From: a virus | Lineage: Duplodnaviria > Heunggongvirae > Uroviricota > Caudoviricetes | Strand: one strand, 5' to 3' | Virus record (IMG/VR): IMGVR_UViG_2698536372_000022 | DNA length: 5,893 bases | Program-made: the position numbers and the translations under genes | The notes under the pieces: generated by a model | Told to the model about the DNA's origin: nothing | The model's database searches: none | The model's input: the letters and a program-made list of their open reading frames with translations, nothing else | In this document: piece by piece, positions 1-5,830 of the stretch | Layout: every line of letters starts with the position of its first letter | Numbering within the stretch: the stretch's first letter is position 1

Positions 1-197
1 CCAGGTTTATCCTCGCAGACAATAAATTTATAAGCGCAGTCCTGAGCAGCCGGATAATGTTCCAGGAACTGCCAGTGAAATTTTGCTCGAGCACGGCGTT
101 CGTCGCCAGCTTCAATGGCTGTGGCTACAGCCACAGAGCCTTCTTCCCTTGTTGCCAGTTCGTCAGGAATAGCGGCGCAAATAAAGACTTTACTCAT
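1..197 (-). CDS. 5' part of a prophage gene in the ydfE position (hypothetical protein); gene runs off the left edge of the window
   Basis: ATG at 195-197 on the minus strand, with GAGG about 10 nt upstream. The frame stays open to position 1, reading MSKVFICAAIPDELATREEGSVAVATAIEAGDERRARAKFHWQFLEHYPAAQDCAYKFIVCEDKP. It lies directly downstream of ydfD in the same orientation, as ydfE does in Qin-type prophages. The identification is by position, not by sequence recall. Confidence 0.6.
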   Translation of the reverse strand, partial: MSKVFICAAIPDELATREEGSVAVATAIEAGDERRARAKFHWQFLEHYPAAQDCAYKFIVCEDKP

Positions 198-290
198 TTT
201 GTTTTAACCTCATGACAGATTTAAGGATGAACAAATCCCTGCCATTGCTGGCATATAAGAATGAAACCGGATATTTATTACGGAACTGTT

Positions 291-482
291 TTAAAGACCT
301 GCCGGGATTTCGATATTATCCTGGTGAATAACTTTATCGACCGGGTAACAGTTACCGGGAATTTTCTGTTCGGTTGCTGCAGTCATACACTCCTGCATTG
401 TCCTGTGAACACTGACTGCAATATCAACTGGCACTCCGGAAACAAGAAAAACTGTCAGAACAAGCGCAAATGCTGAATTCAT
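291..482 (-). CDS. ydfD: YdfD-family small prophage lysis protein (63 aa)
   Basis: Internal Met of the 291..536 ORF gives MNSAFALVLTVFLVSGVPVDIAVSVHRTMQECMTAATEQKIPGNCYPVDKVIHQDNIEIPAGL, which matches E. coli YdfD as I recall it. Its ATG (480-482) overlaps the dicB stop (479-481) as ATGA, suggesting translational coupling. It has an N-terminal hydrophobic segment. Confidence 0.85.
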   Translation of the reverse strand: MNSAFALVLTVFLVSGVPVDIAVSVHRTMQECMTAATEQKIPGNCYPVDKVIHQDNIEIPAGL

Positions 483-667
483 TGTGCACATCCTTTTGGC
501 ATCAGACGTAAACGAGCCAGCATTGAAACAATGCATATTTTATTTAATAGCTCCCGTTCTTGTTTTCTCTTGTTAATGGCATCTTCAGTAAATACAGGGT
601 TACTGATAGTGACACCAATTTCAAAACAACCTTCAGACGTATTAACGTTTGGTAATAACGTTTTCAT
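479..667 (-). CDS. dicB: Cell-division inhibitor DicB (62 aa; acts with MinC on FtsZ)
   Basis: Internal Met of the 479..772 ORF gives MKTLLPNVNTSEGCFEIGVTISNPVFTEDAINKRKQERELLNKICIVSMLARLRLMPKGCAQ, which is the E. coli DicB sequence as I recall it. GAGGA lies about 9 nt upstream of the ATG at 665-667 on the minus strand. The longer N-terminal extension in the ORF track has no ribosome-binding site and is not expected. Confidence 0.9.
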   Translation of the reverse strand: MKTLLPNVNTSEGCFEIGVTISNPVFTEDAINKRKQERELLNKICIVSMLARLRLMPKGCAQ

Positions 668-836
668 TATCGCGTCCTCAACAATGAATTTTGTGATGCA
701 GTGCCTGGTGCCTCCAGGTGACGTTAACCAGTTAACAATTAACGTCGGATACAGAGAATCCACCCATAACACTGTTTTTGGTTTTAACTGTTCCGCGTGC
801 GCTTAGCCGTATTCACCGCATCACAAAATTCACTTT

Positions 837-894
837 AAAAAGGGCGGCAGAGCAGTCACGGAGTAAAACTGATACCGCCAAACGTCACCAGAAA
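837..894 (-). ncRNA. dicF: DicF small regulatory RNA (53-nt mature sRNA plus U-tail of its intrinsic terminator)
   Basis: Reverse complement of 842-894 reads TTTCTGGTGACGTTTGGCGGTATCAGTTTTACTCCGTGACTGCTCTGCCGCCC, followed by TTTTT (837-841). This is the DicF sequence as I recall it, with its GC stem and U-tract terminator. It sits between the ydfB/ydfC region and dicB, as in the Qin dicB operon. Confidence 0.9.
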
Positions 895-1153
895 ATTGAT
901 AACAGAGGGCGTTGCAGCGGGGTTGTCACTTAAGCGTATGGTCAACCTGACAACCCGGTGTCCTCAACGGGGAAGGAATAACCCCGCCATACTTACCGCC
1001 GCGCCATTTTGCGGGTTGCCACAACCGGAAGCGCACGGTCGAATTAAATTTAACGACACCGTACAGTGAGACGAACTTCGCCGTGCGCTTTCGTGTTGTG
1101 TGCCTGCTTTTAACCACGTCAGGCGAGGTGGTATCCTTAAAATCACCACAGTT

Positions 1154-1729
1154 TTAAGGATTCATTAAGCAATGTCGCAACCACCAATAAATCCGCTTAA
1201 GAACATGAAAATTGATTACTGGTATAAAGCGCTTACAGTTGTTGGCGCTGCGTTGTTTGTCTTTAATGGAACGTCTTTTTTTGACAGATATCCCGTTGTT
1301 CCATTGGGTTTTTTGTCCTCCGGCATCTTTTTTATTGGTTTGGGGGAGTGGATTAATCACCCTCTCATAGTGAGATTTATTGGTCCTGGAGTTTGGACTC
1401 GTGGATATAATCGTTCTTCGTGCGCACTCGGTATCATCTTCGACATACTTGGTTGTTTCCTGATTGTTACAGGAGTCGTCAAGTTCTTCTGATGTAAAAC
1501 CGCAAATGGGGCACGTAACGGGAATTTTGAAAAGCGTTTCTCCGGGTTCCAGAACAAAATTTTCTGCGGTCTGATTTTGCTTCTCATATTTGTGCTCCGC
1601 GTCATTGTGAGAGCACATTCTTATTCTGAGTGCCTGTTTAAACTCACTGAAGCTGAGAGCTTCTTCGCCTTCGGCAAGGCCTTCGAAGTATTCTTCGTAA
1701 GCCTTTTCCATGATTGTGTTGAAATCCAT
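1154..1729 (-). CDS. YdfB-like prophage protein; open reading frame continues for 191 codons, C-terminal extent uncertain
   Basis: ATG at 1727-1729 on the minus strand lies 1 nt after the ydfA stop, with GGTGAG upstream. The N-terminus MDFNTIMEKAYEEYFEGLAEGEEALSFSEFKQAL is acidic and protein-like and includes a CPICG motif. The frame stays open to 1154, but the last ~100 residues are K/R/N/T-rich low complexity, which is what the antisense of a hydrophobic ORF looks like. The K-12 counterpart is much shorter as I recall. Confidence 0.45.
   Translation of the reverse strand: MDFNTIMEKAYEEYFEGLAEGEEALSFSEFKQALRIRMCSHNDAEHKYEKQNQTAENFVLEPGETLFKIPVTCPICGFTSEELDDSCNNQETTKYVEDDTECARRTIISTSPNSRTNKSHYERVINPLPQTNKKDAGGQKTQWNNGISVKKRRSIKDKQRSANNCKRFIPVINFHVLKRIYWWLRHCLMNP
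1172..1492 (+). CDS. Candidate small membrane protein (106 aa, about 3 hydrophobic segments), convergent with and antisense to the ydfB-like ORF
   Basis: ATG at 1172 with AAGGA 12 nt upstream. Product MSQPPINPLKNMKIDYWYKALTVVGAALFVFNG...GFLSSGIFFIGLGEW...ALGIIFDILGCFLIVTGVVKFF has three hydrophobic stretches of transmembrane length. The ORF contains no TTA, CTA or TCA codons. It is mutually exclusive with the minus-strand ORF over the same bases, so only one can be the selected frame. Confidence 0.3.
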   Translation: MSQPPINPLKNMKIDYWYKALTVVGAALFVFNGTSFFDRYPVVPLGFLSSGIFFIGLGEWINHPLIVRFIGPGVWTRGYNRSSCALGIIFDILGCFLIVTGVVKFF

Positions 1730-1730
1730 A

Positions 1731-1886
1731 TCACTCACCTGAGTTTCTTTCCAGCCAGCGACGGGCACCATTTTCGGTTTTAAACGTTTTGCTTTTGGTA
1801 TACGTCATCGCGGTGAACGTGCCGTCCTGGTTGGGGAACACGCCACATACCAGAGATTCGCTGTTGCCAAGATCGATAGTATCCAT
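1731..1886 (-). CDS. ydfA: YdfA-family small prophage protein (51 aa, DUF1391-like)
   Basis: Internal Met of the 1731..2042 ORF gives MDTIDLGNSESLVCGVFPNQDGTFTAMTYTKSKTFKTENGARRWLERNSGE. GAGGT lies 7-8 nt upstream of the ATG at 1884-1886 on the minus strand. It is the first gene downstream of the dicA-like repressor gene, the ydfA position in Qin. The N-terminal extension in the ORF track is unsupported. Confidence 0.85.
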   Translation of the reverse strand: MDTIDLGNSESLVCGVFPNQDGTFTAMTYTKSKTFKTENGARRWLERNSGE

Positions 1887-1962: not shown

Positions 1963-1991
1963 AATTTAGTTTTCTCATTATTTTTCGTCAA
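1963..1991 (-). promoter_or_regulatory. Candidate sigma70 promoter of the leftward dicB operon (ydfA-ydfB-dicF-dicB-ydfD)
   Basis: Minus strand reads TTGACG (-35, plus-strand 1986-1991), a 17-nt spacer, then TAAATT (-10, plus-strand 1963-1968). The predicted transcription start is about 70 nt upstream of the ydfA ATG. Operator-like motifs overlap the spacer/-10 and lie just upstream of the -35. Confidence 0.5.
1964..1977. promoter_or_regulatory. Operator-like site O3 (imperfect TGAG-N4-CTAAA) overlapping the -10/spacer of the dicB-operon promoter
   Basis: Minus strand reads aTGAGAAAACTAAA. It shares the 10-nt core TGAGAAAACT with the sites at 2001-2014 and 2537-2550. Confidence 0.4.
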
Positions 1992-2078: not shown

Positions 2079-2486
2079 TTATTGATGCTTGTTGCGTTTG
2101 CGAGCCTCTAATAGCTCGGTGAACAGGCGATTAAAATTCTCAACGCGGGCGCGGAGTTCGCTGAGTTGTGCTTGTTGCTCTGATTTAGGAAGTGCGCGAT
2201 ACAAACGCAGCATCTCTAACTCATCTTCCGATAAGTCTAAGGCACTATCGAGTGAAACAGGGGGAGCTGGTGTTTTGTCCTCGTCGCCAAACAGTATCCA
2301 AGTTGGTGAACATTGCAATACCTCGGCGAGGCGATGCAAATTTTGCCCGCGCGGGGCTGTATGGTCACTTTCCCATAATGAAATTGATGAGCCAGATACG
2401 CCAGCAGCTTTGCTTAAACCGTTTTGACTTAAGCCTACCTGCTTACGTCTTTCTCTAATGCGTTGACCTAAAGTTTTCTCGTTCAT
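2079..2486 (-). CDS. dicA: DicA-like prophage repressor (XRE-family HTH, 135 aa; no S24 peptidase domain)
   Basis: From the second Met the product is MNEKTLGQRIRERRKQVGLSQNGLSKAAGVSGSSISLWESDHTAPRGQNLHRLAEVLQCSPTWILFGDEDK... It aligns along its full length with E. coli DicA as I recall it (METKNLTIGERIRYRRKNL...VLQCSPTWILFGDEDK) and has the same length. There is no Shine-Dalgarno before the ATG at 2484-2486, so it is leaderless-like, as is common for cI-type genes. It is divergent from the cro-like gene. Confidence 0.9.
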   Translation of the reverse strand: MNEKTLGQRIRERRKQVGLSQNGLSKAAGVSGSSISLWESDHTAPRGQNLHRLAEVLQCSPTWILFGDEDKTPAPPVSLDSALDLSEDELEMLRLYRALPKSEQQAQLSELRARVENFNRLFTELLEARKRNKHQ

Positions 2487-2563: not shown

Positions 2564-2791
2564 ATGTTTAAATCAGACGTAATTAATTTTTACGGTACGA
2601 AAGCCAAAGTAGCGAAAGCTGCTGGCGTTGACCCATCTGCTGTTTCTCAATGGCAAGAGCTGGTTCCTGAAGGTCGCGCGATGCGTCTACAGGAGGCATC
2701 TGGCGGCGAGCTTCTGTATGATCCCAAGGTTTATGACGAATATCGTAAGACGAAGCGGGCGGGGCGGTTGAACAATGAAAATCACTCCTGA
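2564..2791 (+). CDS. dicC: DicC/Cro-like transcriptional regulator (75 aa, YdaS/DicC family HTH)
   Basis: ATG at 2564 with GGAGG 4 nt upstream. Product MFKSDVINFYGTKAKVAKAAGVDPSAVSQWQELVPEGRAMRLQEASGGELLYDPKVYDEYRKTKRAGRLNNENHS. The C-terminal half matches E. coli DicC as I recall it. It is divergent from the repressor gene. The TTG start at 2537 in the ORF track is less likely. Confidence 0.85.
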   Translation: MFKSDVINFYGTKAKVAKAAGVDPSAVSQWQELVPEGRAMRLQEASGGELLYDPKVYDEYRKTKRAGRLNNENHS

Positions 2792-3296
2792 ACAGGCTCG
2801 TGAGGCTCTGGATGCCTGGATATGTCGACCAGGAATGACACAGGAGCAGGCGACGATATTAATCACTGAAGCATTCTGGGCTTTGAAAGAGCGCCCGAAC
2901 ATCGATGTTCAGCGTGTCACAGATGAAGGTGGCGCGGTTGATCAGCGAGCACTTGGCGTTAATCGAGTGAAGATATTCGAACGCTGGAAGGCTATCGACA
3001 CCAGGGATAAGCGTGAAAAGTTCACGGCGCTAGTGCCTGCAATTATGGAGGCTATTCGGATTAATGATTTCAGGTTGTATCGTGAAATTAGTGACGGAAA
3101 AAGCATCACGTACATGATCGCCGGGTTAAACAAAGAATATGGCGATGTGGTGGAGTCCGGACTGCTTTTTGCTGATCCTGCCGTAGTGGATCGTGAAACT
3201 GACGAACTTATAGAAAAAGCAATTGCTTTCAAACTTGCGTATCGACAGCAATACCAACAAAAAGCTGGATGGAATTATGAGCCTTCTTTTTGCTGA
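2775..3296 (+). CDS. ydaT: YdaT-family protein (PF06254-like; proposed CII-equivalent regulator, historically annotated as toxin YdaT)
   Basis: The N-terminus MKITPEQAREALDAW and the block KIFERWKAIDTRDKREKFTALVPAIMEAI follow the pattern of Rac YdaT as I recall it (MKI...RW...REK...L.PAI). It overlaps the dicC-like stop by 17 nt and lies in the cII position of the early-right operon. Confidence 0.8.
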   Translation: MKITPEQAREALDAWICRPGMTQEQATILITEAFWALKERPNIDVQRVTDEGGAVDQRALGVNRVKIFERWKAIDTRDKREKFTALVPAIMEAIRINDFRLYREISDGKSITYMIAGLNKEYGDVVESGLLFADPAVVDRETDELIEKAIAFKLAYRQQYQQKAGWNYEPSFC

Positions 3297-4735: not shown

Positions 4736-5830
4736 ATGATCAAAGAGACTGTTACGATGAGTCATAAGGAACTCCACCGACTTCAGATTATTCAGGAGTC
4801 AATTAATCGACATATTACTCAGGAACAAGCTGCGGCACGCATTGGCATTTCTATTCGGCAGGTTAAACGTCTGGTGCAACGGTATAGAAATGAAGGGCCT
4901 TCTGGTCTGGTTTCCCACCGACGTGGAAAGCGTCCTAATAATTCCTTTTCTACTGAATTCAGAGCAACAGTAATTTCACTCCTCAAAGGCCGTTACGCTG
5001 ATTTTGGACCTACGTTTGCGTGCGAAAAATTGCGCGAGATACACGGTTTATCTTTATCCGTTGAAACTCTCAGAAAGTGGATGATAGAAGAGGGGTTATG
5101 GCGTGAACGCCGTCGTAAAATTGCCCGTATATATCAACGCCGCATGCGACGACCATCTTACGGTGAACTGATCCAGATTGATGGCTCACCTCATGACTGG
5201 TTTGAAAATCGAGGCCCCAGATGTACACTGATCGTTTTCATTGATGATGCCACCAGTGCGTTGATGGCGTTGCGTTTTGTGCCTGCTGAAACAACCCGGG
5301 CTTACATGGAAACCCTCCGGGGTTACCTTAATGATCATGGCGTACCGCTCGCTCTCTACTCTGATAGACACAGTATATTCAGGGTAAATAACCCAGAGCG
5401 GGAAGGTGAGCTGACCCAGTTCACTCGTGCGATAAAGACACTGGGCATCGAGCCAATCCATGCCAACAGCCCGCAGGCAAAAGGGCGGGTAGAGCGCGCC
5501 AATCAGACACTACAGGACAGGCTGGTCAAAGAAATGCGGCTTCAGAATATCAGTGATATTGAAACAGCAAATGCATGGTTGCCGACCTTTATTGAAGCCT
5601 ATAACAACCGGTTCGCTACGTCGCCTCGTACTACTGATAATGCTCATCTTGATGTGCACCATTCTGAAGAGGAACTGGGTTATATCTTCAGCCTACAGGC
5701 GAAGCGCGTTCTGTCTAAAAATCTCACTTTCCAGTACAAAAGCAGTGCGTTTCAGGTACGCAGTGAGGGCCGGGGATATCGACTTAGGCATTCGGTTGTT
5801 ACTGTATGTGAGAACTTTGAGGTAGCCTGA
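4736..5830 (+). CDS. DDE transposase of the rve (retroviral-integrase-like) superfamily with N-terminal HTH; IS481/ISNCY/IS21-IstA-like
   Basis: The N-terminal HTH region reads AARIGISIRQVKRLVQRY. The catalytic core has the DDE arrangement: D in QIDGSPHDW, D in LYSDRHSIF, and E in the KGRVERANQ signature typical of rve transposases. Alternative start at ATG 4757 (MSHKEL...). The exact IS family is not resolved from memory. Confidence 0.85.
   Translation: MIKETVTMSHKELHRLQIIQESINRHITQEQAAARIGISIRQVKRLVQRYRNEGPSGLVSHRRGKRPNNSFSTEFRATVISLLKGRYADFGPTFACEKLREIHGLSLSVETLRKWMIEEGLWRERRRKIARIYQRRMRRPSYGELIQIDGSPHDWFENRGPRCTLIVFIDDATSALMALRFVPAETTRAYMETLRGYLNDHGVPLALYSDRHSIFRVNNPEREGELTQFTRAIKTLGIEPIHANSPQAKGRVERANQTLQDRLVKEMRLQNISDIETANAWLPTFIEAYNNRFATSPRTTDNAHLDVHHSEEELGYIFSLQAKRVLSKNLTFQYKSSAFQVRSEGRGYRLRHSVVTVCENFEVA

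Follow-up and report, generated by a model that had tools for sequence, protein, structure and literature searches.

The window analysed here, a 5,893-nt stretch of viral DNA (IMG/VR record IMGVR_UViG_2698536372_000022), comprises the immunity region and the early-left region of a lambdoid prophage of the Qin/Rac kind, whose early-left (dicBF) operon is on the minus strand. In this operon an open reading frame (ORF) that begins like ydfB of Escherichia coli K-12 runs for 191 codons (1154..1729, minus strand). This flagged ORF belongs to a wrongly annotated module that codes on both strands, and it is fused here to codons 1-34 of ydfB. Two thirds of the ORF are the reverse complement of a gene on the plus strand (1172..1492), whose 106-aa product is predicted to have three membrane helices. 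The plus gene, recognized by its homologues, its substitution pattern and an AlphaFold2 (AF2) model, had been missed in the initial annotation of the window. It is probable, in our judgement, that the long 'ydfB' is a chimera formed by modular exchange, in which a real plus-strand gene is paired with an open antisense ORF that has a coding head, and that the plus gene has a role of the kind associated with the sieB slot of lambdoid prophages.

Organization of the flagged ORF and comparison with K-12

The flagged ORF extends from an ATG at 1729 to a TAA stop codon at 1156-1154. The initial annotation had described it as open over 191 codons, and so it is; mechanical ORF calling starts at an ATG further upstream and gives 205 aa (1154..1771, minus strand). 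The start at 1729 is coupled to the stop of ydfA. Three minus-strand segments make up the chimera. Codons 1-34 (1629..1729) are homologous to YdfB. Codons 35-79 (1493..1628) are carried on a cassette, lie outside the plus gene and appear to be genuinely coding. Codons 80-191 (1157..1492) form a hydrophilic tail, the codon-aligned reverse complement of the plus gene.

In K-12 MG1655, ydfB (42 codons) is followed by ydfC (72 codons) in the same operon, in agreement with the sizes given in the initial annotation. There the pair had been explained as the frameshifted remnant of a longer ancestral gene, and the comparison with K-12 contradicts this. By blastn, window positions 1-1111 aligned with the K-12 locus at 97.1% and 1629-1957 at 96.7%, 1112-1628 gave no alignment at all, and the ydfC DNA of K-12 found no match in the window. 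The 517-bp cassette at 1112..1628, with content on both strands, thus has no K-12 counterpart; it replaces the 3' end of ydfB, ydfC and about 120 bp downstream. Opposite it K-12 holds an unrelated 396 bp with the ydfB 3' end and ydfC. As shown by BLASTP, YdfB aligned at residues 1-34 only (33/34 identical, 97%) and its C-terminal 8 residues were left unaligned. PHROG 2061, to which YdfB (b1572) belongs, also matched the flagged ORF at residues 1-34 only, so the resemblance does not cover the whole 42 aa. No frame in 1112-1628 belonged to YdfC (b1573).

Because 1112-1628 lacks K-12 homology, the YdfB match ends at residue 34 and YdfC is unmatched, the difference from K-12 is, on these alignments, an exchange of cassettes and not an indel; one of the breakpoints falls inside ydfB codon 33-34. 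The initial annotation had also allowed for a different local insertion, and this alternative fits: 1112-1628 stands in place of the 396 unrelated K-12 bp. Its proposal to place indels by aligning 1154-1729 with K-12 yielded none that relates the two arrangements, and blastn and BLASTP against K-12 together rule out any frameshift or indel model of ydfB-ydfC. A second minus-frame ORF of 82 codons (1357..1605), which had been called the ydfC equivalent, is indeed open but unrelated to YdfC: nothing aligned with K-12 YdfC by BLASTP at E<=100 or by blastn. It had no Pfam match, its only database occurrences were at the end of long-ORF variants with a frameshift (P0073, P0078 and P0079), and it is probably not a gene.

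Positions 900-1800 of the window are 100% identical to E. coli E2865, and at least 80% of this interval was covered in 792 of the 5426 complete E. coli genomes. Two labels exist for the flagged ORF in RefSeq, a hypothetical protein of 191 aa (WP_000344958.1) and a truncated ydfB pseudogene; in the identical strain it is a ydfB pseudogene 'missing C-terminus', and the plus gene is left unannotated at this locus. A 205-aa antisense ORF is likewise annotated as a hypothetical protein in phage HannyBb. Full-length homologues of the flagged product, whose existence the initial annotation had wished to see checked, do occur in other prophages (P0061, 1798 member sequences), and PHROG 35040 corresponds to this antisense ORF. 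In P0067, P0068 and P0070 the antisense ORF continues past the region upstream of the plus gene into an intact YdfC, which gives fusion frames of 245-271 aa.

An O157-type prophage has a third, unrelated filling of the same slot between ydfB and dicF. In this filling (L004) a 61-aa Cys-rich ORF (CPAC...NCPEH) is located at 1331-1516 on the plus strand and a 129-aa ORF at 1703-2092 on the minus strand. Small cargo genes in opposite orientation seem to have a hotspot in the ydfB-dicF slot. In a literature search on ydfB, ydfC and dicF, no paper describing the cassette variant was found.

Selection on the two strands

The plus and minus frames are codon-aligned across the plus gene, and therefore codon position 3 of the plus frame is position 1 of the minus frame. 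Differences at plus codon positions 1/2/3 numbered 11/7/35 between the window and L017, 8/10/22 for L018, 38/23/55 for the L011-type prophage and 41/25/60 for Yersinia. In the same four comparisons the plus proteins were 84, 88, 58 and 51% identical and the antisense products only 60, 73, 39 and 35%. Polymorphism was scored among 78 IMG/VR copies of the E. coli type. At the 11 variable sites in the overlap, the plus frame had 6 synonymous and 5 nonsynonymous changes, and at the same sites the minus frame had 2 synonymous and 9 nonsynonymous changes, one of the latter being nonsense. The excess of third-position differences, the protein identities and the polymorphism ratios indicate that, of the two frames, it is that of the plus gene on which protein-level selection acts.

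The family of the plus-strand protein

A search of 5.8 billion proteins with the 106-aa product gave 60 matches down to 34% identity, and the full-length ones were mostly 100-111 aa long. Homologues were found in Yersinia, Pantoea, Herminiimonas, Reinekea, several phages and many metagenome-assembled genomes and metagenomes. A profile search of 1.84 billion representatives returned 484 sequences at E<=1e-3, of which 218 were at E<=1e-10, mostly of the same length. About 280 member sequences were available for the plus ORF vs 1798 for the minus cluster. The conserved motifs are NPLxxLKIDYWYKA and GLGEWINHPL, with W17-Y18-K19-A20, G56, G58-E59-W60 and N62-H63-P64 invariant in the alignment. AF2 modelled the protein with a predicted local distance difference test (pLDDT) score of 88 and a predicted template modelling (pTM) score of 0.74, with helices at residues 17-32, 42-62 and 85-105 and a β-hairpin at 66-78. 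No family was found for it in Pfam (sub-threshold noise only), PHROG, PADLOC or NCBIfam, and fold searches returned generic helical bundles only. Together with the substitution data, these results identify the plus gene as a real one, subject to purifying selection and part of a widespread but uncatalogued family.

Two known classes of small membrane protein were considered and rejected. A holin gene would be expected in a lysis cassette by an endolysin gene, and the plus gene was always beside the immunity region; the sole holin match in BFVD had E=0.45 and a template modelling (TM) score of 0.28. A type I toxin would be shorter than 60 aa with a single helix and a short antisense small RNA (sRNA). 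The plus protein has 106 aa and three helices, and the only sRNA that Rfam matched in the window was DicF.

The gene neighbourhoods of non-phage homologues revealed no recurrent partner gene. On an Arcobacter sp. chromosome, three copies of a family member (L030, L031 and L032) had 10 antisense stops each. Since they share the same flanking ORFs, this suggests carriage on a repeated mobile element. In Reinekea marinisedimentorum (L006, 589-2729) a family member stands in a run of six small ORFs on one strand, all of unknown function; a ParD-like gene comes next, and the run resembles a cassette array. In Shigella flexneri (L041, 3001-3036) the plus gene is broken after 10 codons; the cassette alignment had 77% identity and 114 gaps, and it looks like a decayed copy.

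The head of the minus-strand ORF

Codons 69-78 of the flagged ORF (1496..1525, minus strand) read I-P-V-T-C-P-I-C-G-F and end against the stop codon of the plus gene. In Escherichia, in Yersinia and in the L011-type prophages, the motif I-P-x-x-C-P-(I/V)-C-G-F was encoded immediately beyond the plus gene. At its eight conserved codons (I, P, C, P, I/V, C, G and F), five lineages varied at 7 third, 2 first and 0 second positions, with wobble changes such as ATT/ATA/ATC, CCC/CCT/CCA/CCG, TGC/TGT, GGT/GGA and TTT/TTC. Polymorphisms in 1493-1729, a stretch which includes the ydfB-derived codons, were 5 synonymous and 3 nonsynonymous. The same CPxCG head, in the form PPGFKF(T/V)P(L/F)HKxCPxCG(C/F)DLS, stood before the antisense frame in four environmental metagenome relatives (L178, L183, L184 and L185), the plus proteins of which are about 40-46% identical to that of the window. 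The wobble changes, the 5:3 ratio and the recurrence in distant relatives, all read from sequence comparison, show the first part of the minus ORF to code for a conserved, evidently translated short peptide that ends in a CPxCG knuckle.

The initial annotation had pointed to a C...H...CPIC arrangement as a possible small zinc-binding element. The residues are there (C38, H40 and C73-P-I-C76), and the CPxCG part is kept in relatives; the set of four ligands is not. In an alignment of ten lineages (A7), C36, C39 and G40 were invariant and P37 nearly so, this knuckle being C73-G77 of the 191-aa ORF. C38, H40 and the later Cys residues of the flagged ORF were not conserved, and mEp390 lacks the knuckle. 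The Cys/His conservation at two knuckles that characterizes a four-ligand zinc ribbon was not found. A classical ribbon is therefore unsupported because only C-P-x-C-G is invariant, and a zinc site of any kind is weakly supported by these alignments; a single knuckle may be shared between two chains. The Rac proteins YdaG and YdaE, of which the latter has a zinc-binding annotation, were unlike the minus-ORF head when compared by reading the translated sequences only.

The open tail of the minus-strand ORF

A codon-aligned antisense stop requires a TTA, CTA or TCA codon in the sense gene. None of the three was present in the plus genes of the Escherichia types, the L011 type, Yersinia, Pantoea rodasii and phage mEp390, although these antisense-open genes have a G+C content (GC) of 0.41-0.49 and contain 8-12 Leu and 3-6 Ser codons each. 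In all of the enterobacterial phage and prophage lineages examined, the tail was stop-free over the full length of the plus gene. In neighbouring prophage genes, TTA/CTA made up 30% of the Leu codons and TCA 25% of the Ser codons, and from this usage the analytic probability of an open frame was 0.004-0.01 per lineage. Counted directly in the same genes, 4.4% of 106-codon windows were antisense-open, with a mean of 4.5 stop-forming codons per 106, and the longest antisense-open run was 193 codons. Among homologues from non-enterobacterial genomes with GC<=0.47, 14 of 15 had 3-17 antisense stops. Metagenome family members without the CPxCG head also carried antisense stops.

AF2 gave the 191-aa ORF a pLDDT of 44.5 overall and below 50 for residues 39-173. 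Owing to the low confidence and the shallow alignment, the model supports a disordered tail only weakly. Viewed as a candidate antisense overlapping gene pair, the locus has a plus frame that is clearly coding and a minus frame that consists of a coding head and an open tail without amino-acid conservation. With moderate confidence, and as a statistical inference, we propose that in many lineages the tail is held open by selection for an open frame and not for a particular sequence.

Upstream block and cassette junction

A conserved block of about 75 nt (1093..1171, plus strand) precedes the plus gene and was aligned among Escherichia, the L011 type and Yersinia (A2). It contains a putative promoter element, the candidate extended -10 TGGTATCCT, at 1129-1137 on the plus strand, and a perfect 10-bp inverted repeat at 1133-1142 and 1152-1161. 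The Shine-Dalgarno sequence AAGGA of the plus gene (1156-1160, plus strand) lies inside the repeat, as does the stop codon of the minus ORF. The block has an invariant GTGGTATCCT, and the upper pairs of the repeat vary by lineage, AAAA/TTTT vs AAGG/CCTT. Several roles can be envisaged for the block: a promoter combined with an operator, a hairpin sequestering the Shine-Dalgarno sequence, or a structure formed where the minus ORF ends. RNAalifold predicted about -4 kcal/mol with little covariation on either strand and so lent no support to a structure. A terminator scan found nothing for the plus gene; the sole terminator-like site, at 1669-1688, was weak.

The left boundary of the cassette falls within GTTGTGTGCCTGCTTT (1093-1111), which is common to the window, the L011 type and Yersinia; K-12 has a degenerate copy (L001, about 2663-2690). 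This sequence may be a recurrent junction for module exchange.

Genes around the module and the sieB slot

Upstream of the flagged ORF on the minus strand is ydfA (1731..1886; DUF1391, Pfam PF07151, E=8.8e-28), and further upstream a promoter-like site, TTGACG-17-TAAATT (1963..1991), occupies the position of the dicB-operon promoter on a consensus match only. The gene of a DicA-like repressor with a helix-turn-helix domain (2079..2486, minus strand; Pfam HTH_3, E=2.1e-15) marks the immunity region that adjoins the module. It is faced on the plus strand by a Cro-like gene (2564-2791) and a YdaT-like gene (2775-3296). Downstream of the module, and in the same operon, are the DicF sRNA gene (842..893; Rfam RF00039, 76.7 bits, E=3.3e-16), then dicB (479-667) and ydfD (291-482), all on the minus strand. 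At the other end of the window, after a DUF977 gene, a 364-aa ORF (4736-5830, plus strand) is transposase-like because it has HTH_28, HTH_29 and HTH_32 domains and an rve_3 integrase core; an insertion sequence has probably landed in the replication region of the prophage.

In nine prophage contexts the plus gene was a neighbour of the repressor gene and ran opposite to both it and the early-left genes, and this position was shared by Yersinia, Pantoea and three other prophage types. The order in Rac is racR(-), ydaG(-), ydaF[DUF1391](-), sieB(+), kilS/kilR(-), and that in lambda is pL, N(-), sieB(+), ral(-). As a membrane-protein gene antisense to the early-left operon and beside the repressor gene, the plus gene has the position of sieB; its product does not belong to the Pfam SieB family. 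The pair in mEp390 (L130) is placed in the other early operon, between the cro-like gp38 and the cII-like gp40, and not in the sieB slot. Here the annotated gp39 (2456-2911) is the antisense ORF, which fills the gap between gp38 and gp40 with spacers of 37 and 17 nt, and the plus-strand family member (2501-2815) is unannotated.

Discussion

The reading that we prefer can be set out as follows. Modular exchange in a Qin/Rac-like prophage has replaced the 3' end of ydfB and ydfC by a 517-bp two-strand module, the minus ORF of which happened to fuse in frame to the first 34 ydfB codons. From its sieB slot and its orientation, that is, from context, we infer that the plus gene is probably expressed in the lysogen from a promoter of its own, as a membrane protein of the exclusion or abortive-infection type. 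The minus ORF would be transcribed and translated only upon derepression of the early operon, and this antisense transcription and translation might silence the plus gene, keep the early transcript translated, or both. A further-reaching version, which we put forward tentatively and think rather less likely to hold than to fail, is that the module consists of two fully overlapping genes, conserved and mobile as a pair, that serve as a toggle between lysogeny and the lytic cycle. One would encode an ancient small membrane protein, an exclusion or abortive-infection factor of the lysogen; the other would be an overprinted partner with a CPxCG head and a tail that exists solely as the reverse complement of the first and is selected to stay open. 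The antisense ORF would then switch the plus gene off, act as an antidote or bridge translation.

Several observations weigh against parts of the preferred reading. The plus protein resembled neither SieB nor any defence protein in sequence or fold in the family and fold searches, and a strict consensus scan gave no sigma-70 promoter for its gene. The tail evolves like unconstrained sequence, as judged by the antisense identities and the 2:9 polymorphisms, and at GC>=0.5 some antisense-open frames are expected from composition alone. The integrity of the minus frame is not absolute: 1 of the 78 copies had a nonsense codon in the tail, 1 of 80 was frameshifted in the motif, and L018 had a TGA at the motif Gly. 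In the environmental loci L178 and L185 the minus ORF is not obviously in an opposite-strand operon, which weakens the idea that it keeps an operon translated.

Two other accounts of the locus take the long minus ORF for the real gene. That the long ORF is an intact ancestral gene, with ydfB and ydfC of K-12 as its frameshifted remnants, would agree with the 34 codons common to K-12 ydfB and with the recurrence of the ORF in many E. coli prophages. It is nevertheless extremely improbable: DNA and protein similarity both cease past codon 34, the K-12 interval is an unrelated 396 bp vs 517, and the presence of the cassette ORF and an intact YdfC in one reading frame in P0067, P0068 and P0070 indicates that they are separate modules. 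Hardly more credible is the view that the 191-aa minus protein is the only real gene and the 106-aa plus ORF its shadow. Gene callers and the Prokaryotic Genome Annotation Pipeline (PGAP) do favour the minus ORF, which has its own PHROG (35040) and more member sequences, 1798 vs about 280. Yet plus homologues in distant bacteria have 5-17 antisense stops, it is in the plus frame, and not in the minus frame, that substitutions and polymorphisms are synonymous, and the invariant motifs and confident fold of the plus protein contrast with a minus tail of pLDDT <50.

The remaining alternatives concern the tail. It is possible, if unlikely, that only about the first 80 codons of the minus ORF are real and that the 112-codon continuation is a chance shadow free of selection for openness. 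Such a continuation needs nothing but the absence of TTA, CTA and TCA, antisense-open runs reach 193 codons in neighbouring genes, broken copies exist, and the tail is neither conserved as a protein nor predicted to be ordered. What speaks against chance is the openness in at least four diverged enterobacterial lineages and several environmental ones with the CPxCG head, while headless family members have many stops at similar GC; 0.044 per lineage over the three lineages other than that of discovery gives about 1e-4. We attach an equally low likelihood to a minus ORF that is mainly a translated bridge, keeping ribosomes on the early transcript and so preventing Rho-dependent polarity downstream. 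A bridge accounts for openness without sequence conservation, and in mEp390 gp39 takes up the interval between cro and cII, in lambda the location of the tR1 rut sites, except for spacers of just 37 and 17 nt. It is at odds with untranslated gaps of 285-490 nt after the minus ORF in the window, L011 and L017, leaves the conserved CPxCG head unexplained, and does not suit the environmental loci that lack a clear opposite-strand operon.

The module is of consequence for annotation, as RefSeq/PGAP, a deposited phage genome and PHROGs give the wrong strand or a 'ydfB pseudogene', and a family of 484 cluster representatives is absent from the curated libraries searched. The sieB slot of Qin/Rac-like and other lambdoid prophages would hold interchangeable cargo for expression in the lysogen; the plus gene is a new candidate for phage exclusion or abortive infection inside the well-studied dicBF operon. 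Antisense overlapping genes in bacteria are disputed, mostly for want of comparative evidence. Here an antisense frame begins with a conserved, evidently translated head and is open throughout lineages with sense proteins of only 39-58% identity, and the headless family members with many stops provide an internal control. Selection for openness without sequence conservation thereby becomes directly testable by silent mutations.

Comparison with known systems

The closest relative of the locus is the dicBF operon of the K-12 Qin prophage, ydfA-ydfB-ydfC-dicF-dicB-ydfD (PMC5069750). The operon, its flanks and its gene order are alike, with ydfA, dicF, dicB and ydfD all in the window and the first 34 ydfB codons 97% identical. 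The window differs in lacking the ydfB C-terminus and ydfC, in place of which it has the unrelated 517-bp two-strand module.

In slot and orientation the plus gene is most like sieB of lambda, P22 and Rac, which is expressed in the lysogen and in P22 is accompanied by an antisense RNA (sas). Both encode a membrane protein and are convergent with the first early genes, and ydaF of Rac is a DUF1391 homologue of ydfA. In contrast to SieB, with its 162-192 aa, the plus protein has 106 aa and no sequence similarity to it; sieB abuts its convergent neighbour, whereas the plus gene is fully traversed by a convergent ORF.

Long shadow ORFs and wrong-strand gene calls are another point of reference. 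The tail of the flagged ORF is such a hydrophilic, low-confidence reverse complement, annotated instead of the real gene, but the ORF also has a conserved, evidently translated head and is open beyond expectation. A type I toxin-antitoxin system of the hok/sok kind would share the small hydrophobic membrane-protein gene, the overlapping antisense transcript and the location on a mobile element. It differs in that the antisense partner is here a long coding frame of an operon and not a short sRNA, and in the 106 aa and three helices of the protein.

Genes that lie antisense to lytic ones typically belong to the accessory loci that prophages express in the lysogen (PMC7067206). In Pseudomonas phage Fc02 a lysogenic exclusion gene and an antisense lytic-operon gene overlap (olg1/gene 10), and the products of both were shown to exclude phages (PMC9936078). 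The pair in the window is similar in that a small gene beside the repressor gene, probably expressed in the lysogen, has a lytic-operon frame running antisense across it. Fc02 is a Mu-like beetrevirus with unrelated proteins, and the pair described here differs from it in that the overlap is complete, codon-aligned and kept across distant lineages.

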